DNA of 26,294 nucleotides, from positions 1-26,294 of IMG/VR virus record IMGVR_UViG_2695420728_000009. One strand, written 5' to 3'. The notes beneath the pieces were generated by a model that was not told where the DNA came from, ran no database searches, and was given only the letters and a program-made list of their open reading frames with translations. This document shows positions 2,558 through 25,891 of this stretch, piece after piece. Origin of the DNA: a virus. Taxonomy: Duplodnaviria; Heunggongvirae; Uroviricota; Caudoviricetes. The first letter of the stretch is position 1; every line of letters starts with the position of its first letter. A program made the position numbers and the translations under genes.

Positions 2558-3348
2558 TTACGCCAGTTGTACGGACACGAACGCATCAGGGTCAGCCAGC
2601 AGCATCAGCGGTGCTGACTGAATCATGGTGAACTCACGCGCCGGATCGCCGGTGGTCACCCAGTTTTTCGGGTAGCGGGCAGAGGCGTTAATACCTTCGC
2701 GCTGTGCGTCCGCATCCTGAATGCAGCCATAGGTGCGCAGACCGCGTGCCTGAGAGTTCCCCAGCACCATCGTGTTGTCCGGAAGGAAGTTCTTTTTGAC
2801 GTCGTTTTCCACGTACTGTCCGGAATACACGACGATCGCCGTATCGCCATACATCCCCTTATAGGACACCGCTTCGCCCAGGTCTTTTACCGCTGTCTCC
2901 AGCTCGGAATTAGAGCCGCGACGGGTATCCAGCTTCTCCTTGACGGCTTTGAAGGAACGGAACAGCGCCCAGCCTTTCGGATCAAACACGATGATATTCA
3001 CCACTCCGCTGGCGTTCAGCGCATAGGCTTCGATATCGTCGGTCGGGTCATACGTGGACTTGTCACGCTTGCTCCACTCCGTACCACCGGACTGTGTGAT
3101 GTTGTTCGCCGCACTGCGGCCCATATCCACCTCAACCGGATCGAAGGCTTCACCGGTCATGGTGTATTTGCCCTTAAGCACAGCAGAAACTGCCTGCATC
3201 TCTTCGACCTGAGCAATGGCCAGCTCTTCGTCTCGCATGTTCTGCATGATGATGCGACGGCGGCGGTAAGCCGGGTCCGCCAGATTCTGCGGATCTTCAT
3301 CCGGCAGGCGACGCAGGGTCATCTGCGGATTCACCTCATGCTTCGGCT
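2558..3348 (-). pseudogene. E: 3' fragment of major capsid gene E (codon ~83 to native stop), separated from its 5' part by the inserted element
   Basis: Translation (V)NPQMTLRRLPDEDPQNLADPAYRRRR...FVSVQLA matches lambda gpE residues ~83-341. In-frame upstream codons give P-K-H-E-V and then a TAG at 3347..3349 where E should continue. The ORF caller's start is a GTG inside E. Confidence 0.9.
3339..3348. repeat. Left copy of the 10-bp direct repeat TGCTTCGGCT (attL-type core) at the element/E junction
   Basis: Exact 10-mer at 3339..3348 and 14528..14537, each precisely where E homology breaks; its reverse complement lies within the E codons K-P-K-H. Confidence 0.75.
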
Positions 3349-3424
3349 ACATGAGTCAAATATGAAAGGATGTGAATGATTTGATTACGTTTTAGCTATA
3401 GAATTGAAATGGAAAATCCTTGAA

Positions 3425-3445
3425 TGCAATACAACGTGCAATACA
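3425..3445 (+). promoter_or_regulatory. Tandem pair of TGCAATACA motifs (12-bp period) near the left end; candidate integrase arm-type sites
   Basis: TGCAATACA at 3425..3433 and 3437..3445. The same tandem pair in the same orientation occurs at 14380..14399 near the other end, between the int start and the right junction. Confidence 0.35.
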
Positions 3446-3482
3446 TGGATGAAAACCATCACTCATTTAACAAGAGGAATCT

Positions 3483-4388
3483 ATGCGCTCACCCAACAGA
3501 ATGCATGAACGCTCAACATTTTATAAGTATATGTCGTTGAATACCGCGAAGATTGTTCTTGATTCATGCAGCCTTAGATGGAGTTCTCCGGTCCTATTTA
3601 ATGACCCTTTTGATGTTCCAAGAGAAGTTATGCCTGGTATTAACGAAATTAATATTGGCAAAGCTTTAGCCCGCAAGTTAATAGCGGAGTTGATTACCCC
3701 CAGAGAAGACATACAAAATTTAAACCCTAGAATTAGAACAATGCTAAGTGATTTCCAAAAGTCATTTCCTTTAGGCATACCCGCAGGATTAATTGAAAGA
3801 TTTCAAGAAATGGTAAACATTCCACCAGTTGGGATTGGCGCTCCTGCGGCAATACAAGAAATGAAAGATGTCTGGCGAGGAATGCTTAATAACAGAAGGA
3901 TTTTGTGTTTATCTGAGAGCCCTATAATCACTCCTATGTGGAATCACTATGCCGATAAATATAAAGGTATAGTTATCGAATTGGATTGTGTAGACTTTCT
4001 GGATAGCGCTTGGTTAATAGCCAAACCTATGAAATACACAGATGAAATGCCTCTAACTCACACTGCTGAAGGGATGGCCGAGTTGCTTTTCATGCCAGAC
4101 AATAAGTCAATTGAATATATCAATAATGAGATAATATTCATAAAAACAGAAGAATGGGCATATGAAAGAGAGTGGAGAATTTCAACCTACGCTAGGCCAA
4201 ATAGCACTGGTCAATATAGCGACTTAAAATTTCACCCTTTTGAGTTAAAATCTGTAATACTTGGTCCTCTTTTTGATGCCAGCGAGTTCGATGAAGTCGC
4301 ATCACTAGTTAAAATGTATCCAAGAGCGAAATTATTTAAAAGTTCATTTGGGAACGACAGAAAAATATCCATAGTACCACTACCTTAA
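3483..4388 (+). CDS. DUF2971-like protein (function unknown), AT-rich cargo gene
   Basis: 301-aa ORF with N-terminal FYKY...LFNDPFD and C-terminal EREWR motifs that I recall as DUF2971 hallmarks. Markedly AT-rich relative to neighbours; convergent with the packaging module. Confidence 0.55.
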   Translation: MRSPNRMHERSTFYKYMSLNTAKIVLDSCSLRWSSPVLFNDPFDVPREVMPGINEINIGKALARKLIAELITPREDIQNLNPRIRTMLSDFQKSFPLGIPAGLIERFQEMVNIPPVGIGAPAAIQEMKDVWRGMLNNRRILCLSESPIITPMWNHYADKYKGIVIELDCVDFLDSAWLIAKPMKYTDEMPLTHTAEGMAELLFMPDNKSIEYINNEIIFIKTEEWAYEREWRISTYARPNSTGQYSDLKFHPFELKSVILGPLFDASEFDEVASLVKMYPRAKLFKSSFGNDRKISIVPLP

Positions 4389-4419
4389 AAGGTCAAATGC
4401 TTTTGACAAATAAAATCTA

Positions 4420-4445
4420 TCGCCAGTTTTACTGGCGACTTTTAA
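4420..4445. terminator. Hairpin between convergent genes (DUF2971-like and Nu1-like); likely bidirectional terminator
   Basis: TCGCCAGT-TTT-ACTGGCGA perfect 8-bp stem at 4420..4438 followed by CTTTTAA, with an A/T run on the other side. Confidence 0.5.
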
Positions 4446-4494: not shown

Positions 4495-5046
4495 TTAACT
4501 TCGCTGATTATCCTTGATATACCTTTCAGCCATATCTGGAATGTTATCTGAGATCTGGTAAGCTCGAATAAATGCTTTACTGACCTCCATCTTAATGAAG
4601 TCCTGATACCGTTTTTCCATGCCAGGAAACTGTCGACAGATCGCAAGTGGAAGACTATCAATGATTGCTCCAACTTCCCCAGTTAATTTCGACAAGGCAT
4701 AAGTCGCAAATGCAGTGTCAATTACCTCACCTGTTTCGCTGGCATTCTTCAGTTCCTGTGCGTCGGCCTGCGCACGCGTAAGTCGATGGCGTTCGTACTC
4801 AATAGTCCCTGGCTGGAGATCTGTCTCGCTGGCCTGCCGCAGTTCTTCAACTTCCCGGCGCAGCTTTTCGTTCTCAATTTCAGCATCCCTTTCGGCATAC
4901 CATCTTATAACGGCGGCAGAGTCATAAAGCACCTCATTACCCTTGCCACCGCCTCGCAGAACGGGCATTCCCTGTTCCTGCCAGTTCTGAATGGTACGGA
5001 TACTCGCACCGAAAATGTCAGCCAGCTGCTTTTTGTTGACTTCCAT
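4495..5046 (-). CDS. Satellite small terminase subunit, Nu1-like: N-terminal ~100 aa near-identical to helper Nu1, C-terminal domain diverged
   Basis: 183-aa translation MEVNKKQLADIFGASIRTIQNWQEQGMPVLRGGG... differs from the helper Nu1 (20171..20716) at 2 of the first ~100 residues, then diverges (NASETGEVIDTAF... versus NARDSAEVVETAF...). No large terminase gene follows. Confidence 0.85.
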   Translation of the reverse strand: MEVNKKQLADIFGASIRTIQNWQEQGMPVLRGGGKGNEVLYDSAAVIRWYAERDAEIENEKLRREVEELRQASETDLQPGTIEYERHRLTRAQADAQELKNASETGEVIDTAFATYALSKLTGEVGAIIDSLPLAICRQFPGMEKRYQDFIKMEVSKAFIRAYQISDNIPDMAERYIKDNQRS

Positions 5047-5270
5047 TGTTCATTCCACGGACAAAAACAGAGAAAGGAAACGACAGAGGCCAAAAAGCTC
5101 GCTTTCAGCACCTGTCGTTTCCTTTCTTTTCAGGGGGTATTTTAAATAAAAACATTAAGTTACGACGAAGAAGAACGGAAACGCCTTAAACCGGAAAATT
5201 TTCATAAATAGCGAAAATCCGCGCGCCTGACGCCCCGTAGCCTGTCAGATCGCCGGAAAGGACCCGCCAG
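5047..5270 (-). other. cos-like packaging site of the satellite: cosB copy with variant cosN
   Basis: 5047..5220 is identical to helper 20717..20890 apart from a single base in the R3 element. R-type TerS sites seen at 5071..5086, 5114..5129 and ~5192..5203. The cosN-equivalent 12-mer (5224..5235, CGCCTGACGCCC) differs from the helper's AGGTCGCCGCCC at 5 of 12 positions. Confidence 0.7.
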
Positions 5271-5291
5271 CCAGAGCGGGCCCTAATTTCA

Positions 5292-11286: not shown

Positions 11287-11481
11287 ATGTCAACTATCAT
11301 TCAACGTGATAAACAACCGAAAGGTGCAGGTAAAGCACCAGCATTCCAAGTCCGTATTAACCCAGAATTAAAAGAACAAATGGTTAATGTCGCTGCCAAA
11401 GAAGGGATGAGCTTAGGTAACTGGCTAAAAGAACTGGCTCGTGCCGAACTAATAAAACAAGGAATAACACCTAAAGGCTGA
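11287..11481 (+). CDS. Small ribbon-helix-helix-like DNA-binding protein (YlcI/YnfO-like pattern)
   Basis: 64-aa ORF; FQVRINPELKEQMVNVAAKEGMSLGNWLKELARAEL fits a beta-strand-helix-helix (Arc/MetJ-like) pattern and resembles the helper moron 21105..21338 (IRFPNQMIEQINIALDQKGYGNFSAWVIEACRRRL). Confidence 0.55.
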   Translation: MSTIIQRDKQPKGAGKAPAFQVRINPELKEQMVNVAAKEGMSLGNWLKELARAELIKQGITPKG

Positions 11482-11504
11482 TAATTTGCATAAAGGATTC
11501 TTCT

Positions 11505-12854
11505 ATGACAACAAGTCACAAAATGCTAGAAATCAGTAAAGAACAATTTGATGTATTTTTCTATGGTCGTACACCATACGTAAAAACCTTTTCGGAGGAA
11601 ATCTGTTGGTTCAAATTTATAAAGGATGATGTCACGATCTTAGCAACAATTGTTTTTTGTAAAATAGATAATGATTACAACGCTATATTTCTAGGTAGGG
11701 ATTTAGATAAAAAATTTAGAGCGATTAAAGTAATTGTATCCCGTGAATCTAAAGATGATTTAATTACTGATATGGAAAAAGCCATACCAGAGCTATTATC
11801 ACTACACAAGAACGGTTGTTTTATACAGGGTGACGAATCAGAGTCGGCATTTTCAATATTCCTAGCCAAAGTTCCAGAACATAAAAAAAACGTTTATCTA
11901 AGAATGCTACTTGAGGAACCCAAACACTATCCTGCATTTATTGTTATGCAAGAGTTAGCTTATTGGTGTAAAGATCCTGATGGAATATTCATCAGAGATT
12001 TCCAGAGTGCTTCATTTAACTCTCGCTTATTCGAACTTTATCTAAACGCAGTTTTCTACGAAATGGATTTCGTAATATGCAGAGATTATGCTCAACCTGA
12101 TTATATTATCTCAAAAAATGGCATTGATATTGCTGTAGAAGCTGCCACAGTTGCAGAACAAGAGGAACCTACCGAGAAATTGATACTTGATCATGAGGCA
12201 GTAGAAGATCTTCAGAGATATGTAAAAGAACAAATGCCATTCAAATTTGCCCGCACTCTATTAAAGAAAGTTAGGCATAAACCTGAACCCTTAAAATTAT
12301 GCTATTGGGAACTAGATCATACAAAAGGAAAGCCTTTCATTATTGCTTTACACGATTACTCACGCAGATTTTCGATGAGTATATCAATGCCAGCACTACA
12401 AAGCTATCTGTATGGTGTAGATATGGATTCTGGAAGTAAAATTGAACAACATTTATTTGAAAATCGAAGTATACAATCTAATTTTTTCGGCTCTAATAAA
12501 AATGAGAATGTCTCAGCCATATTACTTGCGACACATGCCACCATCCCAAAATTTGATAGGATGGGAGTAGTGGCAGGGATTGAACAAAAAAATGTCAAAT
12601 CCATCGTTAGAGGTATTAAAACTGATGAAGGCTGTACCCCAATGCCTTTTACTGCTCTTGTCAATGCACCTTCATATCAAGAACCATGGTGTACAGCAAT
12701 ATACATGTTTCATAATCCGAAGGCATTAAATCCTATACGCCCTGAATTATTCCCAAGAGTTATTCATATTTTTGAAGAAGATGGAGAAATAGTTCAATAC
12801 TTACCACCTAATTATATAATCTCATCAACTACGCACGTATTTGAATTTAAGTGA
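11505..12854 (+). CDS. Large unknown protein (449 aa), AT-rich cargo; candidate defence or toxin effector
   Basis: Long clean ORF 23 bp downstream of the RHH gene; very low GC compared with flanking satellite genes. No family recognised by eye; a weak PD-(D/E)xK-like stretch (QPDYIISKNGIDIAVEAA) is noted without confidence. Confidence 0.7.
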   Translation: MTTSHKMLEISKEQFDVFFYGRTPYVKTFSEEICWFKFIKDDVTILATIVFCKIDNDYNAIFLGRDLDKKFRAIKVIVSRESKDDLITDMEKAIPELLSLHKNGCFIQGDESESAFSIFLAKVPEHKKNVYLRMLLEEPKHYPAFIVMQELAYWCKDPDGIFIRDFQSASFNSRLFELYLNAVFYEMDFVICRDYAQPDYIISKNGIDIAVEAATVAEQEEPTEKLILDHEAVEDLQRYVKEQMPFKFARTLLKKVRHKPEPLKLCYWELDHTKGKPFIIALHDYSRRFSMSISMPALQSYLYGVDMDSGSKIEQHLFENRSIQSNFFGSNKNENVSAILLATHATIPKFDRMGVVAGIEQKNVKSIVRGIKTDEGCTPMPFTALVNAPSYQEPWCTAIYMFHNPKALNPIRPELFPRVIHIFEEDGEIVQYLPPNYIISSTTHVFEFK

Positions 12855-12859
12855 TTTCA

Positions 12860-12886
12860 AATCCTATGGGTTTACCCCATAGGATT
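12860..12886. terminator. 11-bp perfect-stem hairpin between convergent genes (449-aa cargo and alpA)
   Basis: AATCCTATGGG-TTTA-CCCATAGGATT at 12860..12886, 6 bp after the cargo stop codon. Confidence 0.5.
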
Positions 12887-12905
12887 ACATCCACTGTCTA
12901 AATTC

Positions 12906-13127
12906 TTACCACTCTCCCCTAATCCATGCCTGCACTTCTGAAAGACGATATGCAACAGCAGTGGAACCAATCTTGATCCGCTTAGGAAATTTTCCTTCCT
13001 TCTCCAGCTTCCAGCGTGTGCTGTTCGCAAGAGTGGTTAGCTCCCGACATTCTTTCTCACGGATCATACGATCGATATTAGGAATGTACTCCAGACCCTT
13101 TTTATCGACAATTGCCATTTTTTTCAT
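12906..13127 (-). CDS. alpA: AlpA-family transcriptional regulator / excisionase-like protein
   Basis: 73-aa ORF; RELTTLANSTRWKLEKEGKFPKRIKIGSTAVAYRLSEVQAWI matches the AlpA HTH signature; immediately downstream of int on the same strand. Confidence 0.85.
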   Translation of the reverse strand: MKKMAIVDKKGLEYIPNIDRMIREKECRELTTLANSTRWKLEKEGKFPKRIKIGSTAVAYRLSEVQAWIRGEW

Positions 13128-13128
13128 G

Positions 13129-14364
13129 TTAACCAGCCTTTTGTTTGAGGATTGTCACTTTTGAATCAGCACCTGCGATGCTATTGAGATATGTAGTCCA
13201 GAGTTCCAGAGCATCCAGTTTTTTAGCCATAAACTTACTCCGGTTGTAAACACCTGCCACGCCAGGTAGCGCATGGCCTAACAGTTGTTCTACTACATAA
13301 AATTCAACACCGAGATCACTTAGATGAGTAGATAGCGTTCTTCTAAGGTCGTGTAGTGACCATTGTTTTTCATGGCCCAAACGTTTACCGATTTTCCCCC
13401 CAATCTTGCTTACGCTTTCTCTAATTCGCAGACTTCCCAGCACATAACCAGTATGTTTTGTCTCTTCGTGAACATCCGTTACCCACTGTCGTAGAATTTC
13501 AGGTACTGGTCTGACGATTTCAACACCAGTTTTTGAGTGATCTTTTGGTACAGTCCAAACCCAACTTTCGAGATCCCATTCGCTCCATTCTGATAATCGG
13601 GCTTCACTCATTCGACATCCAAATACTGTACAAAGCACAAACATTTTTCGCGTGTATTCAGACATTAGTTTTAAATCAGGCTCGACAAAAATTGCCTTCC
13701 AGAGCTGGCCGAGTTCGGCTTCATCCAGAACCCGATCCCGCTTACCTGCAATCTGCCCCACATCACTCATGCGCAAATCCTTTAAAGCATCACACGTCGC
13801 GTACTGGCGTACCCGACAAAAACGAAGAGCTAATTTAGTGTCAGAAAAAACATACGCCGCCATAACTGGTGCATTACGTTTAATTCGGTCAAAACAGTCC
13901 AGCCATTCATATAGGTGAGTGTCATTTACGGGCAAATGACCGATATAGGGAAAGATATGCTTTCGAAATCTGCCAAGCGTTACAGCATGAGTTTTACGAC
14001 GCACCTTACAGTAATTTTCATACCAGTAATTTAGTGCATCCTCCACTGTGACCGGCTTTAAGCGTTCTTCAGCCTGAATCTTAATCTGGATACGCGGATC
14101 ACGTTTGTCAGCCAACCAACCACGGCACTCGTCGCGCTTTTCCCTTGCCTGTTTGAGTGACATATCAGGATATTTACCCAACGTTAGCCAGACCGGAGCA
14201 GCCCGGCCACCTGCTAACCTGTAGAAGAAAACAAAGCTCACAGCCCCTTTAGTACTCACACGAATAGAAAGCCCCTTTCCATCAGCAATGGTGATCTGCT
14301 TTTCTCTGGGTTTCCCCAGATATCCTTTAAGCGCTTTGTCGCTCAGTTTGTTCTCGCCAGCCAT
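13129..14364 (-). CDS. int: Tyrosine site-specific integrase (P4-type)
   Basis: N-terminus MAGENKLSDKALKGYLGKPREKQITIADGKGLSIRVSTKG... typical of the P4-integrase N-terminal domain; C-terminal catalytic region with HDLRRT and LLGH motifs and a Tyr-containing tail. Start set at ATG 14362..14364; the 17 upstream codons are extension. Confidence 0.9.
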   Translation of the reverse strand: MAGENKLSDKALKGYLGKPREKQITIADGKGLSIRVSTKGAVSFVFFYRLAGGRAAPVWLTLGKYPDMSLKQAREKRDECRGWLADKRDPRIQIKIQAEERLKPVTVEDALNYWYENYCKVRRKTHAVTLGRFRKHIFPYIGHLPVNDTHLYEWLDCFDRIKRNAPVMAAYVFSDTKLALRFCRVRQYATCDALKDLRMSDVGQIAGKRDRVLDEAELGQLWKAIFVEPDLKLMSEYTRKMFVLCTVFGCRMSEARLSEWSEWDLESWVWTVPKDHSKTGVEIVRPVPEILRQWVTDVHEETKHTGYVLGSLRIRESVSKIGGKIGKRLGHEKQWSLHDLRRTLSTHLSDLGVEFYVVEQLLGHALPGVAGVYNRSKFMAKKLDALELWTTYLNSIAGADSKVTILKQKAG

Positions 14365-14379
14365 TTTTAGCCCCAAAAA

Positions 14380-14399
14380 GCAATACAAGCTGCAATACA
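14380..14399 (+). promoter_or_regulatory. Second tandem pair of GCAATACA motifs (12-bp period); candidate integrase arm-type sites / int promoter region
   Basis: GCAATACA at 14380..14387 and TGCAATACA at 14391..14399; same motif, spacing and orientation as the pair at 3425..3445. Confidence 0.35.
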
Positions 14400-14526
14400 G
14401 AGATGATTGCAACACACAGATAACGAGGAAAATTCAGTGAAAGCACCAGATAAACTTATTCTTTATTATCAAAAGATTAAGTGTAAAAACCAGCAACTAC
14501 ACGAAAGCCTCAGAAAGCCATGCTAA

Positions 14527-14772
14527 GTGCTTCGGCTTGACATATCCCGGTGTAAATTCAGAGGTGGAGCCGCCACGGGAGCGGATAACCTCACCGGAAA
14601 CAATCGGCGAAACGTACAGCGCCATGTTTACCAGTCCCGGAATTTGTGAGAGATAGACTTTCTCCGTGGTGAAGGGATAGCTCTCACGGAAAAAGAGACG
14701 CAGAAACAGCGGATCAAACTTAAATTTCTTCTCATTTGCCGCCAGCAGCTGGGCGGTTGTGTACATCGACAT
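14527..14772 (-). pseudogene. E: 5' fragment of major capsid gene E (codons 1-82), truncated by the element
   Basis: From ATG 14770..14772: MSMYTTAQLLAANEKKFKFDPLFLRLFFRESYPFTTEKVYLSQIPGLVNMALYVSPIVSGEVIRSRGGSTSEFTPGYVKPKH matches the lambda gpE N-terminus, then reads into element sequence (LAWLSEAFV, stop at 14497). Confidence 0.9.
14528..14537. repeat. Right copy of the 10-bp direct repeat TGCTTCGGCT (attR-type core)
   Basis: Exact match to 3339..3348; E homology ends at 14527. Confidence 0.75.
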
Positions 14773-16489: not shown

Positions 16490-20170
<3,681 letters not shown>

Positions 20171-20196
<26 letters not shown>

Positions 20197-20716
20197 TCAG
20201 CAACCCCGGTATCAGTTCATCCAGCGCGGCTGCTTTGTTCATGGCTTTGATGATATCCCGTTTCAGGAAATCAACATGTCGGTTTTCCAGTTCCGGAAAA
20301 CGCCGCTGCACCGACAGGGGGATCCCGTCGAGAATACTGGCAATTTCACCTGCGATCCGCGACAACACGAAAGTACAGAATGCGGTTTCCACCACTTCAG
20401 CGGAGTCTCTGGCATTCTTCAGTTCCTGTGCGTCGGCCTGCGCACGCGTAAGTCGATGGCGTTCGTACTCAATAGTCCCTGGCTGGAGATCTGCCTCGCT
20501 GGCCTGCCGCAGTTCTTCAACCTCCCGGCGCAGCTTTTCGTTCTCAATTTCAGCATCCCTTTCGGCATACCATTTTATGACGGCGGCAGAGTCATAAAGC
20601 ACCTCATTACCCTTGCCACCGCCTCGCAGAACGGGCATTCCCTGTTCCTGCCAGTTCTGAATGGTACGGATACTCGCACCGAAAATGTCAGCCAGCTGCT
20701 TTTTGTTGACTTCCAT
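20171..20716 (-). CDS. Nu1: Terminase small subunit Nu1 (helper copy)
   Basis: 181-aa translation matches lambda Nu1 throughout (MEVNKKQLADIFGASIRTIQNWQEQGMPVLRGGGKGNEVLYDSAAVIKWYAERD...SEYIEQSG). Confidence 0.95.
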
Positions 20717-20940
20717 TGTTCATTCCACGGACAAAAACAGAGAAAGGAAACGACAGAGGCCAAAAAGCTCGCTTTCAGCACCTGTCGTTTCCTTTCTTTT
20801 CAGGGGGTATTTTAAATAAAAACATTAAGTTACGACGAAGAAGAACGGAAACACCTTAAACCGGAAAATTTTCATAAATAGCGAAAACCCGCGAGGTCGC
20901 CGCCCCGTAACCTGTCGGATCGCCGGAAAGGACCCGCAAA
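20717..20940 (-). other. cos: cos site of the helper prophage (cosB R-sites plus cosN cohesive-end sequence at 20894..20905)
   Basis: Reverse complement of 20894..20905 is GGGCGGCGACCT, the lambda 12-nt cohesive end, flanked by ...CGCG and CGTAACCTGTCGGATCGCC... as at the lambda genome ends. R-type sites (CTGTCGTTTCCTTTCT, AGAAAGGAAACGACAG) lie between cosN and the Nu1 start. Confidence 0.88.
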
Positions 20941-21104
20941 ATGATAATAATTATCATCTGCATGTCACAACGTGCATCTACGCCATCAAACCACGTCAAA
21001 TAATCAATTATGACGCAGGTATCATATTAATTGATCTGCATCAACTTAACGTAAAAACAACTTCAGACAATACAAATCAGCGACACTAAATACGGGACAA
21101 CCTC

Positions 21105-21338: not shown

Positions 21339-21394
21339 AGCAATTTAGATAATCGTGCAGACTACGCCCCTCATATCACATGGAAGGTACTACA

Positions 21395-21805
21395 ATGGCT
21401 CAGGTTGCCATTTTTAAACAAATATTCGATAAAGTGCGAAATAATTTAAACTATCACTGGTTTTATTCTGAACTAAAACGTCACAATGTCTCACATTACA
21501 TTTACTATTTAGCTACAGAGAATATTCATCTTGTTCTTGAAAACGATAATACGGTTTTAATAAAAGGACAGGGTAAGGTTGTAAATGTAAGATTTTCAAA
21601 AAATAAATGCCTTATAGAAGCCACCTTAAAAGGATTCAAATCAGGAGAGTTATCATTTTACGAATACAGGAAAAATCTTGCTACAGCAGGGGTTTTCAGA
21701 TGGATTACAAATATCCACGAAAACAAAAGGTATTACTATACCTTTGATAATTCATTACTCTTTACTGAGAACATTCAGAACACTACACAAATATTTCCGC
21801 ACTAA
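21395..21805 (+). CDS. YdfO-like protein (DUF1398 family), prophage moron
   Basis: Translation ...[55 protein letters not shown]...[25 protein letters not shown] closely resembles E. coli Qin-prophage YdfO as I recall it. Start placed at the second ATG (21395), which has a GGAAGG ribosome-binding site; 21380 is the alternative. Confidence 0.62.
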
Positions 21806-22296: not shown

Positions 22297-22764
22297 TCAT
22301 CGAAGGCATTGCGTCCTGATGTATTCCTGAAGCGTTCTCAGTGCTGTTTGGTCGCGGATAATTCCGTCCCGGACACCGAGAACGTTTCGTCCAGCAACTG
22401 GAGAGAGTTCGACGGTGGCATCATTGCCCATGCCGGAGGCGCTGGAGGTTTCGGCTGAGGATGGCACAGGGCATTTTCCTTTGACGAACACCCGACCACC
22501 ATTATCAAGCTTGCGCCGAAGAGCATCATTTTCAGCTTTCGCATCAGCTAACTCCTTCGTGTATTTATCATCGAGTGCATCAGCATCACGCTGGCGCTGC
22601 TGCATGTCAGTAATGGTGGCGTTCGCCTTCTCCAGTTCACTGGCCTTGTTATCGCGCTGTTCTTTGTAGGCGATTGCATTATCACGGTAATGATTAACAG
22701 CCCATGACAGGCAGACGATGATGCAGATAACCAGAGCGGAGATAATCGCGGTTACCCTGCTCAT
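22297..22764 (-). CDS. Rz: Rz i-spanin (inner-membrane spanin subunit)
   Basis: N-terminal transmembrane segment ([19 protein letters not shown]) followed by a coiled-coil periplasmic domain; its start ATG overlaps the endolysin stop (ATGA). Position is canonical, downstream of the endolysin. Confidence 0.85.
22338..22544 (-). CDS. Rz1: Rz1 o-spanin (outer-membrane lipoprotein), embedded out of frame within Rz
   Basis: 68-aa ORF wholly inside Rz in another frame; signal peptide with lipobox-like ...MVVGCSS and a proline-rich mature region ([16 protein letters not shown]) as in lambda Rz1. Confidence 0.7.
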
Positions 22765-23258
22765 TGTTGCCCCCACAAACAGACCTCACGCTCAATCTCA
22801 CGACGAGTCATCAGGCCTTTCCATTGCTTACCGCCAGCGTATGCCCAGCGACGTAGCTGGTCACATGCGCCCTTGATATCGCCCTGGTTTATTTTGCGAA
22901 GAAGAGTAGATGTTCTGAAATTGCCTGCGCCCACGTTATAGACGAACGAGTAAAGAGCGCCGCGCGTTGTTTCCGGTATATCGACTTTGATGTACGGGTT
23001 AATTTGTCTGGCTACCGTGGCAAGGTCTTTATTCAGGAGGGCTTTGCATTCTGCTTCGGTATACGTTTTACCGGGAATGATGTCTTTTCCTGTATGCCCG
23101 TGACATACAGTCCATACGCCAACGATATCTTTGTATGGTATGTAGCTGACACCTTCCAGACCATCGTTACCACTTGGGCCAGTGATTAACACTGATGCTA
23201 TAGCAATTGCTCCGCCACCAATAGCAGCAGCAACGGCTTTTCGTAATGATGGAGGCAT
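22761..23258 (-). CDS. R: SAR endolysin (phage-21 R-type lysozyme)
   Basis: 165-aa ORF with an N-terminal Gly/Ala-rich signal-anchor-release segment ([18 protein letters not shown]) followed by a T4-lysozyme-like catalytic region ([10 protein letters not shown]...[11 protein letters not shown]). Confidence 0.88.
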
Positions 23259-23474: not shown

Positions 23475-23900
23475 ATGGAATTACAGGACTGGCGAAAAGA
23501 ACCTCGTAAAAACTATTCGAATGAATTCAAACTTCGTATGGTGGAACTGGCATCACAACCTGGAGCTTGTGTTGCACAGATTGCACGTGAAAATGGCGTC
23601 AATGATAATGTTATTTTCAAATGGCTCAGGCTCTGGCAGAACGAAGGGCGTGTTTCGCGGCGTCTTCCGGTAACGACCTCTTCTGACACTGGCGTTGAAT
23701 TATTACCTGTAGAAATAACGCCGGATGAGCAGAAAGAACCTGTGGCGGCCATTGCGCCGTCTTTATCCACTTCCACTCAGACCAGAGTCAGTGCCAGTTC
23801 CTGCAAGGTGGAATTCCGTCACGGTAACATGACGCTGGAAAATCCATCGCCAGAGCTGCTCACAGTGTTGATCCGTGAACTGACCGGGAGGGGAAGATGA
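23475..23900 (+). CDS. tnpA: IS66-family orf1 (TnpA, HTH protein)
   Basis: 141-aa ORF; first of three IS66 ORFs; stop overlaps the tnpB start (ATGA). Confidence 0.8.
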
Positions 23901-24247
23901 TCTCACTCCCATCAGGTACCCGTATCTGGCTCGTTGCCGGCGTTACCGATATGCGTAAATCCTTCAACGGACTGGGAGAACAGGTACAACATGTGCTGAA
24001 TGATAATCCCTTCTCCGGTCACCTGTTTATCTTCCGTGGCCGACGGGGTGACACCGTCAAAATTCTTTGGGCTGATGCTGATGGTCTGTGCCTGTTCACC
24101 AAACGCCTGGAGGAAGGCCAGTTTATCTGGCCTGCGGTACGTGACGGCAAGGTATCCATTACCCGCTCGCAACTGGCAATGCTCCTCGATAAGCTGGACT
24201 GGCGTCAGCCAAAAACATCCAGCCGTAACTCACTGACAATGTTGTAA
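23897..24247 (+). CDS. tnpB: IS66-family orf2 (TnpB accessory protein)
   Basis: 116-aa [55 protein letters not shown]... typical of IS66 Orf2. Confidence 0.85.
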   Translation: MISLPSGTRIWLVAGVTDMRKSFNGLGEQVQHVLNDNPFSGHLFIFRGRRGDTVKILWADADGLCLFTKRLEEGQFIWPAVRDGKVSITRSQLAMLLDKLDWRQPKTSSRNSLTML

Positions 24248-24277
24248 AAAACTCCTGACCGCATTATAAAAACGGTC

Positions 24278-25891
24278 ATGAGTCAGAAATACCTCATTCG
24301 CATCGCAGAGCTGGAAAGGTTGCTCTCTGAGCAGGCTGAAGCCCTCCGTCAGAAAGACCAGCAACTGAGTCTGGTTGAAGAGACGGAAGCCTTCCTGCGC
24401 TCTGCACTGACACGTGCCGAAGAAAAGATCGAAGAAGATGAACGGGAAATAGAACATCTGCGGGCTCAGATAGAAAAACTGCGCCGGATGCTGTTCGGTA
24501 CCCGTTCTGAAAAACTGCGTCGTGAAGTTGAACTGGCTGAGGCTCTGCTGAAACAACGTGAACAGGACAGCGATCGTTACAGTGGGCGGGAAGACGATCC
24601 TCAGGTTCCCCGCCAGTTGCGACAGTCGCGCCATCGTCGTCCGTTACCGGCACACCTTCCCCGTGAAATACACCGCCTGGAGCCAGAAGAAAGCTGTTGC
24701 CCGGAGTGTGGCGGTGAGCTGGATTATCTGGGGGAAGTCAGCGCTGAACAGCTGGAACTGGTGAGCAGTGCCCTGAAAGTGATCCGCACAGAACGGGTAA
24801 AAAAAGCCTGTACAAAATGTGACTGTATTGTTGAAGCACCGGCGCCGTCCCGCCCGATAGAGCGTGGTATCGCGGGCCCCGGATTACTTGCCCGCGTGTT
24901 AACGGGAAAATACTGCGAACATCTGCCACTGTATCGTCAGAGTGAAATCTTTGCCCGCCAGGGTGTCGAACTGAGCCGGGCCTTACTCTCCAACTGGGTT
25001 GACGCGTGCTGCCAGTTAATGACACCGGTGAATGATGCCCTGTACCGTTATGTAATGAACACCCGCAAGGTTCACACTGATGACACACCGGTAAAGGTAC
25101 TGGCACCGGGTCAGAAAAAGGCGAAAACAGGGCGTATCTGGACGTATGTCCGGGATGATCGCAATGTGGGTTCGTCATCTCCTCCAGCGGTCTGGTTCGC
25201 GTACTCGCCGAACCGGCAGGGGAAACACCCGGAGCAACACCTCCGCCCCTTCCGGGGTATCCTGCAGGCGGATGCGTTCACAGGTTACGACAGGTTGTTC
25301 AGTGCAGAACGTGAAGGTGGTGCACTGACAGAAGTTGCGTGCTGGGCCCATGCCCGGCGAAAAATCCACGATGTATACATCAGCAGCAAAAGTGCGACGG
25401 CAGAAGAAGCCCTGAAGCGAATCAGTGAACTGTACGCCATCGAGGATGAAATACGGGGATTACCGGAGTTAGAGCGTCTTGCCGTCAGGCAGCAGCGAAG
25501 CAAAGTGTTACTGACGTCGCTGCATGAATGGATGGTGGAGAAGAATGGTACGCTGTCGAAAAAATCCAGACTGGGCGAAGCGTTCAGCTATGTACTGAAT
25601 CAGTGGGATGCCCTCTGTTATTACAGTGATGACGGTCTGGCGGAGGCGGATAATAATGCTGCGGAAAGAGCGCTTCGTGCAGTCTGTCTCGGAAAGAAAA
25701 ACTTTATGTTCTTTGGCAGCGATCACGGCGGCGAGCGTGGAGCACTGTTGTACGGGCTGATCGGCACCTGCCGTCTGAACGGTATCGATCCGGAAGCGTA
25801 TCTGCGCCATATCCTGAGCGTACTGCCGGAATGGCCTTCCAACCGAGTTGATGAACTCCTGCCATGGAACGTAGTACTCACCAATAAATAA
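24278..25891 (+). CDS. tnpC: IS66-family transposase (orf3, TnpC)
   Basis: 537-aa ORF with N-terminal coiled-coil/leucine-zipper region, CxxC...CxxC zinc-finger-like motif (CPECGG...CTKCDC) and DDE-type catalytic core typical of IS66 transposases. Confidence 0.9.
   Translation: MSQKYLIRIAELERLLSEQAEALRQKDQQLSLVEETEAFLRSALTRAEEKIEEDEREIEHLRAQIEKLRRMLFGTRSEKLRREVELAEALLKQREQDSDRYSGREDDPQVPRQLRQSRHRRPLPAHLPREIHRLEPEESCCPECGGELDYLGEVSAEQLELVSSALKVIRTERVKKACTKCDCIVEAPAPSRPIERGIAGPGLLARVLTGKYCEHLPLYRQSEIFARQGVELSRALLSNWVDACCQLMTPVNDALYRYVMNTRKVHTDDTPVKVLAPGQKKAKTGRIWTYVRDDRNVGSSSPPAVWFAYSPNRQGKHPEQHLRPFRGILQADAFTGYDRLFSAEREGGALTEVACWAHARRKIHDVYISSKSATAEEALKRISELYAIEDEIRGLPELERLAVRQQRSKVLLTSLHEWMVEKNGTLSKKSRLGEAFSYVLNQWDALCYYSDDGLAEADNNAAERALRAVCLGKKNFMFFGSDHGGERGALLYGLIGTCRLNGIDPEAYLRHILSVLPEWPSNRVDELLPWNVVLTNK

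Follow-up and report, generated by a model that had tools for sequence, protein, structure and literature searches.

What is the role of a single gene of low GC content located at the very edge of a phage satellite, which itself interrupts the capsid gene of a lambda-like prophage? The window, that is, the whole stretch of 26,294 nucleotides that was analysed (IMG/VR virus record IMGVR_UViG_2695420728_000009), contains such a gene at 3483..4388 on the plus strand, and this gene, encoding a 301-amino-acid (aa) protein of the DUF2971 family, is referred to below as the DUF2971 gene. With moderate confidence, its product can be read as a stand-alone, NAD+-dependent anti-phage effector resembling ADP-ribosyltransferases (ARTs), which would be carried as satellite cargo and act as a single-gene system of the abortive-infection (Abi) type; this reading draws on profile matches, a structure prediction and an analogy with a validated member of the family. 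Overall, the gene is a plausible, predicted defence candidate of Escherichia coli residing in a satellite hotspot, the type of satellite and its odd location being already known.

Family membership and predicted fold

Searches with hidden Markov models (HMMs) clearly indicate the relationship of the protein to DUF2971. The Pfam model (PF11185) matched residues 152–233 over its full length (model positions 1–89) with 36.9 bits, above the gathering cut-off of 22 (E 9.3e-9). This bears out the original prediction, which had called the protein DUF2971-like from the letters alone; its coordinates for the open reading frame (ORF) were exact, and the three motifs it had pointed to, FYKY (residues 13–16), LFNDPFD (38–44) and EREWR (228–232), are all present. 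All four PADLOC HMMs of PDC-S31 match as well, the best being PDLC04990 (E 3.4e-31, residues 9–289), and so does PHROG 1762 (E 1e-67), a group listed with function unknown; the NCBIfam search gave no model for the 301-aa protein. Membership in both DUF2971 and PDC-S31 is shown at the level of profile similarity, which places the gene in a family that had been catalogued before.

A profile of 60 homologues retrieved 19,965 clusters (50% identity) at E ≤ 1e-3 and 638 at E ≤ 1e-30; since nearly all of these 638 strong clusters are about 300 aa long, the window protein belongs to a separate subfamily of full-length proteins within a very large family. A tblastn search of 50,697 phage records yielded four weak matches, the family being very rare in sequenced phage isolates, and a tblastn search of the PLSDB plasmids found only distant DUF2971 genes (24–30% identity), mostly on Klebsiella plasmids.

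AlphaFold2 modelling of the 301-aa protein, using the 60-sequence alignment, gave a confident model (predicted local distance difference test score, pLDDT, 94.6; predicted template modelling score, pTM, 0.86). Counting from the N-terminus, the model contains two strands, a four-helix insertion, a mixed core ending in the strand E228-x-E230-W-R232, and a small C-terminal alpha/beta unit; secondary structure was assigned by DSSP on the model. The corresponding stretches of the gene are as follows.

3516..3614, plus strand: N-terminal conserved block, with K15-Y16 in strand 1, R32-W-S-S-P in strand 2, and then N40-D41-P-x-D44; proposed motif I region
3645..3893, plus strand: four-helix insertion, residues 55–137 (DSSP), between the N-terminal strands and the remaining core
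3936..4181, plus strand: Pfam DUF2971 region, residues 152–233, from M-W153-x-H-Y156 to E228-x-E230-W-R232
4164–4178, plus strand: ExE-like motif, within the Pfam DUF2971 region

The core fold of ARTs is found in this model, so that an ART-like fold is predicted for the DUF2971 protein. The nearest folds are those of Tpt1 and DarT, the likeness to Tpt1 being at the fold level only; the Rhs ART toxin TreX, SopF, scabin, CARDS, pertussis-like toxins, diphtheria-like toxins and PARP15 were further proteins named in the fold comparison. A Foldseek search with the model gave no significant match, and phmmer and profile hmmsearch runs against the sequences of the PDB yielded nothing beyond noise from helical designer proteins, and no DarT. 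Residues conserved and active-site-like across 252 members of the subfamily are K15, Y16, R32, D41, D44, C142, W153, Y156, K221, E228, E230 and R232; W153, Y156, R232 and D41 are each invariant (252/252), E230 is kept in 251/252 and E228 in 248/252. The helical insertion (residues 55–137) is the most variable part of the protein, with low conservation in the alignment. According to a published analysis, DUF2971 proteins are predicted ARTs with DarT and AbiGi as relatives; they share a conserved Tyr and an ExE motif and contain large helical inserts (PMC12522546).

Reading frame and expression signals

The DUF2971 gene begins at the first start codon past an upstream stop, and a strong ribosome-binding site (RBS) lies 4 nt ahead of its ATG. 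The elements on either side of the gene are listed below.

3349..3482, plus strand: upstream intergenic region, containing the RBS AAGAGGA (3472–3478)
4419–4439: GC-rich hairpin with a 9-bp stem between the convergent DUF2971 and Nu1-like genes; terminator for the minus strand, weaker candidate for the plus strand
4495..5046, minus strand: satellite Nu1-like small terminase gene (Pfam Phage_Nu1, E 3.6e-84)

The gene was predicted from the outset to converge with the Nu1-like gene and to end at a bidirectional terminator. The convergent arrangement is as described; the terminator is only partly borne out, as the hairpin has a proper T-tract for the minus strand (the Nu1 side) and is a weaker candidate for the plus strand, where it is followed only by TTTT and was not called by the terminator scan. 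Lying between an attachment (att) core and this terminator, the DUF2971 gene is monocistronic; its expression probably depends on signals of its own and runs antisense to the late operon of the satellite and helper. Its GC content (37.9%) is below that of the satellite backbone (47.5%) and of the flanking prophage (53.7%), in agreement with the distinct base composition remarked on earlier, and a low GC content (36–39%) is kept in all orthologues compared for dN/dS. When the gene was compared with its orthologues in Enterobacter and Klebsiella and with the 62%-identical homologue P0012, the dN/dS ratios were 0.14, 0.08 and 0.15, respectively; by this comparison of coding sequences, the gene is shown to be real and under purifying selection.

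The RefSeq protein WP_001117802.1 has 252 aa and starts at Met50, corresponding to window position 3630 (NZ_CP027461.1, 12331–13089, equivalent to window 3630–4388). The omitted residues 1–49 include K15, Y16, R32, W33, S34, N40, D41 and D44, which are invariant or nearly so among the 252 members; strands 1 and 2 of the predicted core are lost with them. Because these residues are conserved and the family homologues align with the 301-aa protein from residue 1, the RefSeq start is very likely wrong, the true start being at 3483, and WP_001117802.1 is probably short by 49 residues. Cloning from the 252-aa annotation would then mean testing a dead protein.

Carrier satellite and the att-proximal slot

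The flanks of the satellite represent a lambda-like prophage, with tail and head genes on the left and the D, protease, portal, terminase A and Nu1 genes on the right. The satellite interrupts the capsid gene E, whose 3' part ends at the left junction and whose 5' part starts at the right junction, and deletion of the 11,189 bp between the two att cores restores an uninterrupted 341-aa E protein (lambda-type capsid). Besides the genes listed here, the satellite encodes two AlpA-type regulators, a D5_N primase, a single-stranded DNA-binding protein (SSB), its own E-like capsid protein and a D-like decoration protein.

3339..3348: left att core TGCTTCGGCT, at the junction of the 3' part of prophage gene E with the satellite; an identical 10-mer lies at 14528–14537
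11505..12854, plus strand: PD-T7-1 homologue, the other AT-rich cargo gene, in the integrase-proximal slot (PADLOC E 1.3e-153, full-length; GC 0.33–0.35)
13129..14415, minus strand: satellite tyrosine integrase (Pfam Phage_integrase and Arm-DNA-bind_3)
14528..14537: right att core TGCTTCGGCT, the 10-mer twin of the left core

The 11,189-bp insert is the published type 11capE of helper-embedded phage-inducible chromosomal islands (HE-PICIs) (Tommasini, Mageeney and Williams 2023, PMC10111431). The two share the gene E site, a 10-bp identity block, which was reported for 11capE in that work, and the satellite's own capsid, decoration, AlpA, primase and integrase genes; the AlpA/decoration module of the type element in E. 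coli NRG 857C is 99.9% identical to that of the window satellite. The type element differs in its att-proximal slot, located next to the left core, where it has DUF262 and HEPN genes instead of DUF2971. Neither the 11capE status nor the ART-like fold had been recognised in the original prediction, which had correctly placed the gene just inside the left att junction (the core lies 134 bp ahead of the ATG).

The DUF2971 gene had also been assigned to a cargo position, and a comparison of related satellites agrees with this, since the content of the att-proximal slot varies among them.

Window element and 32 complete E. coli genomes: DUF2971, at least 99.6% identical
Enterobacter sichuanensis: DUF2971 orthologue, 88%
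Klebsiella aerogenes: DUF2971 orthologue, 71%
NRG 857C (type element): DUF262 and HEPN (1281–2997 of the locus)
KMi006: "abortive infection family protein" (1306–2067 of the locus)
13P477T: DUF3892 and hypothetical proteins
E. coli isolate 10: 438-aa unknown protein
Cedecea: TIR_2 and DUF3298 protein, with PADLOC TIR matches (12106–13254 of the locus)
Kosakonia: 327-aa unknown protein
Kluyvera and Superficieibacter: unknown proteins
Satellites inserted at clpS, yejO or the portal gene: no cargo, just a 93-aa ORF

Most cargo genes of this slot are antisense to the satellite core operon. Among 5,426 complete E. coli genomes, the satellite AlpA/decoration module was found in 403, the integrase joined to gene E in 174 and the DUF2971 gene in 33; the 33 copies are always chromosomal and were found nowhere else. 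A core satellite function was considered for DUF2971 and rejected, since most sister satellites, the published type element among them, lack the gene. By its distribution, the gene is shown to be accessory cargo in a variable slot. Since related satellites hold DUF262 with HEPN, an abortive infection family protein, or a TIR_2 and DUF3298 protein at this place, the slot, judged by its gene content, behaves as a defence hotspot, a trait unreported in the HE-PICI paper, where cargo and defence genes are not discussed (PMC10111431). The sister satellite of isolate 10, inserted in the same gene E site (NZ_OW968124.1), carries a distant 272-aa DUF2971 protein (17254–18075, 21% identity) in the integrase-proximal slot, which suggests that DUF2971 genes were recruited into both slots independently.

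Outside the slot, homologues of 55–62% identity (in Enterobacter and one enterobacterial assembly) occupy variable islets by proBA, together with an integrase (fragment), HEPN_AbiV, YjhX or CbtA toxins and insertion sequences (IS). A homologue of 46% identity in Enterobacter ludwigii lies at the Ogr/Delta end of a P2-like prophage, and one of 41% identity in Thiobacillus adjoins a HigBA-like pair. Homologues of 40–44% identity in environmental bacteria are lone insertions between unrelated housekeeping genes, which differ each time, and sometimes stand beside toxin–antitoxin (TA) genes or IS; one of them precedes a DUF5677 gene and an IS. This patchy, accessory behaviour answers the neighbourhood check proposed with the original prediction, as homologues are not consistently found in housekeeping contexts. 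An adjacent antitoxin or partner gene was looked for and rejected: no neighbour is conserved across the homologue contexts, which suggests that the DUF2971 gene works alone.

In IMG/VR contigs, relatives of DUF2971 adjoin terminase genes. The 5.7-kb contig UViG_3300031418_000280 (1190–5657) mirrors the layout of the window with a different capsid family, containing, in this order, an N-terminally truncated ClpP–capsid fusion gene, a DUF2971 homologue (38%, opposite strand), a DUF1441 gene and a second, complete capsid gene; it may represent another helper-embedded satellite with the same cargo.

Further observations concern the neighbouring genes. The satellite Nu1-like gene is chimeric (4495–5290 compared with helper 20171–20960): the first 100 aa and about 200 bp upstream, a cosB-like region, are about 98% identical to those of the helper, the C-terminal 80 aa have diverged from helper Nu1, and the overall identity is 72%. 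At the position of cosN, the helper has the lambda sequence AGGTCGCCGCCC (~20892–20903) and the satellite reads CGCCTGACGCCC (~5222–5233), so the cohesive-end site of the satellite differs at several bases. The satellites of Klebsiella aerogenes (11375–11974) and Kluyvera (12062–12661) have a Lambda_tail_I-like gene at the position of the Nu1-like gene, and the sister satellite in NZ_OW968124.1 is without a Nu1-like gene. On the prophage side, a 141-aa AT-rich ORF (21380–21805, plus strand, GC ~0.39; no PADLOC match) lies between the helper Nu1/cos region and the lysis genes (Rz-like, 22297–22776; endolysin, 22761–23258), which are adjoined by an IS66-family element (23475–25891; ORFs of 141, 116 and 537 aa).

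Proposed function, alternatives and known systems

If the DUF2971 protein is an effector of this kind, infection by a competing phage would activate it, and it would use NAD+ to ADP-ribosylate a target, leading to a block of phage gene expression or replication and to a benefit for the lysogen and hence for the satellite and helper. The validated relative is Aristaios, a 316-aa DUF2971 protein forming a single-gene Abi system on Lactococcus plasmid pUCCL641_199 (Grafakou et al. 2024, PMC11381338), which blocks phage transcription and protein production (PMC13064643, PMC12967558). A nucleic acid would be the favoured target: the nearest folds belong to Tpt1, an enzyme acting on RNA, and DarT, one acting on DNA, the conserved residue set is rich in Arg and Lys, and both transcription and protein production of the phage are abolished by Aristaios. 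That no antitoxin accompanies the gene would imply autoinhibition, with the variable helical insert and the C-terminal domain as candidates. The original prediction had suggested a gene "possibly anti-phage"; the PDC-S31 match, the homologue of the validated PD-T7-1 in the other slot of the same satellite, and Aristaios strengthen this suggestion, which for the window protein stays at the level of a prediction. What we infer here comprises the defence phenotype as well as the NAD+ use, the target and the trigger.

Several observations weigh against this reading. At motif I, Lys (K15) stands in 233/233 ungapped subfamily members instead of the canonical His, so that catalytic competence is not assured; typical DUF2971 proteins carry His at this place, and the paralogue in NZ_OW968124.1 has the classical HYTD. 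The putative assignment of the motifs to an NAD+ pocket, which ARTs line with a catalytic H-Y-E or R-S-E triad, draws on the Pfam model boundaries and on the published family analysis (PMC12522546). PDC-S31 is a computational candidate only, for which neither a mention nor a published validation was found in the papers searched. The sequence similarity between the window protein and Aristaios is probably low, and no Lactococcus record, and thus no Lactococcus plasmid, appeared among the PLSDB plasmid matches listed (tblastn, E ≤ 1e-3). A consensus promoter scan of 3349..3482, upstream of the gene, found no site, and several of the distant homologues are single genes amid housekeeping genes, without defence neighbours.

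One alternative is that the conserved accessory protein has an ART-like fold of non-catalytic use, serving as a nucleotide- or nucleic-acid-binding sensor or adaptor, or that it performs another chemistry, such as NAD+ hydrolysis or Tpt1-like phosphotransfer, with a role in defence left open. We consider this possible but unlikely, since such a near-invariant ExE, together with the Tyr and several Arg and Lys residues, typically marks an active site maintained by selection, and an independent analysis puts DUF2971 among the catalytic-looking ARTs (PMC12522546).

An enzyme of counter-defence or host takeover, in which the ART-like protein would modify a component of host defence or transcription and thereby aid the spread of the satellite or helper, appears improbable. 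The location of the gene on a mobile element, next to packaging signals, agrees with such a role, as do the terminase genes adjoining its relatives in the IMG/VR contigs and the existence of a PHROG for the family, by which its presence in genomes of phages and prophages is indicated. Host remodelling by phage ARTs is well established for Alt, ModA and ModB of T4. However, homologues are found outside phages, in chromosomal islets beside Abi and TA genes, the slot in sister satellites holds contents of the defence type, the 50,697 phage records gave just the four weak matches, and the validated family member defends (PMC11381338).

Interference between satellite and helper, with the protein acting on the DNA, packaging or late expression of the lambda-like helper in favour of satellite particles, is very improbable. 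Helper interference is common among satellites (discussed in PMC10111431), and the gene adjoins the satellite Nu1-like gene and the cos-like region; yet most satellites of this family lack it, among them the type element of NRG 857C, and it is present in only 33 of the 174 E. coli genomes having this integrase in gene E, while its transcription is antisense to the late operon and its homologues also live in satellite-free contexts. The reading as a decaying or spurious, functionless ORF, to which the shorter 252-aa RefSeq coding sequence and one E. coli genome with only half of the DUF2971 gene could be taken to point, is effectively refuted by the conservation data, namely the dN/dS values of 0.08–0.15, the full-length homologues in many phyla (638 clusters at E ≤ 1e-30) and the invariant residues within the N-terminal part dropped by RefSeq, together with the confident AlphaFold2 model.

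Returning to the preferred reading of a stand-alone ART-like effector, a more detailed version can be offered as a conjecture that is rather unlikely to hold as a whole: the K-Y-ExE subfamily of DUF2971 proteins (~300 aa) would be a self-contained sensor and effector, which needs no antitoxin, being autoinhibited by the helical insert or the C-terminal domain, and on infection ADP-ribosylates nucleic acid as DarT or Tpt1 would, and late transcription of the helper over the antisense gene would silence it, so that its own helper is spared and competing phages are aborted. If defence is confirmed, the gene would provide a single-gene ART-like system tractable in E. coli for mechanistic work, the only validated relative being in Lactococcus; PDC-S31, a PADLOC candidate, would gain validation; the att-proximal slot of HE-PICIs would be established as a hotspot for defence genes, a point left untouched in the original description of these elements; and the question would arise of how an ART toxin stays harmless without an antitoxin. 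This last question, the Lys-for-His signature of the subfamily, the hotspot character of the slot and the mis-annotated start codon go beyond a routine annotation.

A comparison with known systems delimits the protein further. DarTG identity was rejected, as there is neither DarG nor a DarT sequence signal: no Macro domain was found among the satellite ORFs scanned with Pfam, and homologues have no conserved partner alongside them. In contrast to DarT, which ADP-ribosylates thymidine in ssDNA, the window protein has no Pfam DarT match (only DUF2971 was reported), carries Lys and not His at motif I, and differs further by its large helical insert and an additional C-terminal domain. Membership in the Tpt1/KptA family of RNA 2'-phosphotransferases was rejected as well in view of the lack of sequence or profile similarity: hhalign of the family profile with E. 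coli KptA gave a probability of 0.5%, that is, no signal, the R-H-R-R tetrad of Tpt1 could not be mapped, and the genomic contexts are wholly unlike. As for the carrier, the window satellite resembles the P4 and P2 hotspots (Rousset et al. 2022, PMC9122126) in holding cargo in variable slots. With PDC-S31, the window protein shares matches to all four HMMs over most of its length. The closest functional parallel, Aristaios, differs in host phylum and carrier (a plasmid there, a PICI satellite here), and the two can be likened by family, size and organisation only: in both cases, a single gene without a partner encodes a DUF2971-domain protein of similar size (316 and 301 aa).
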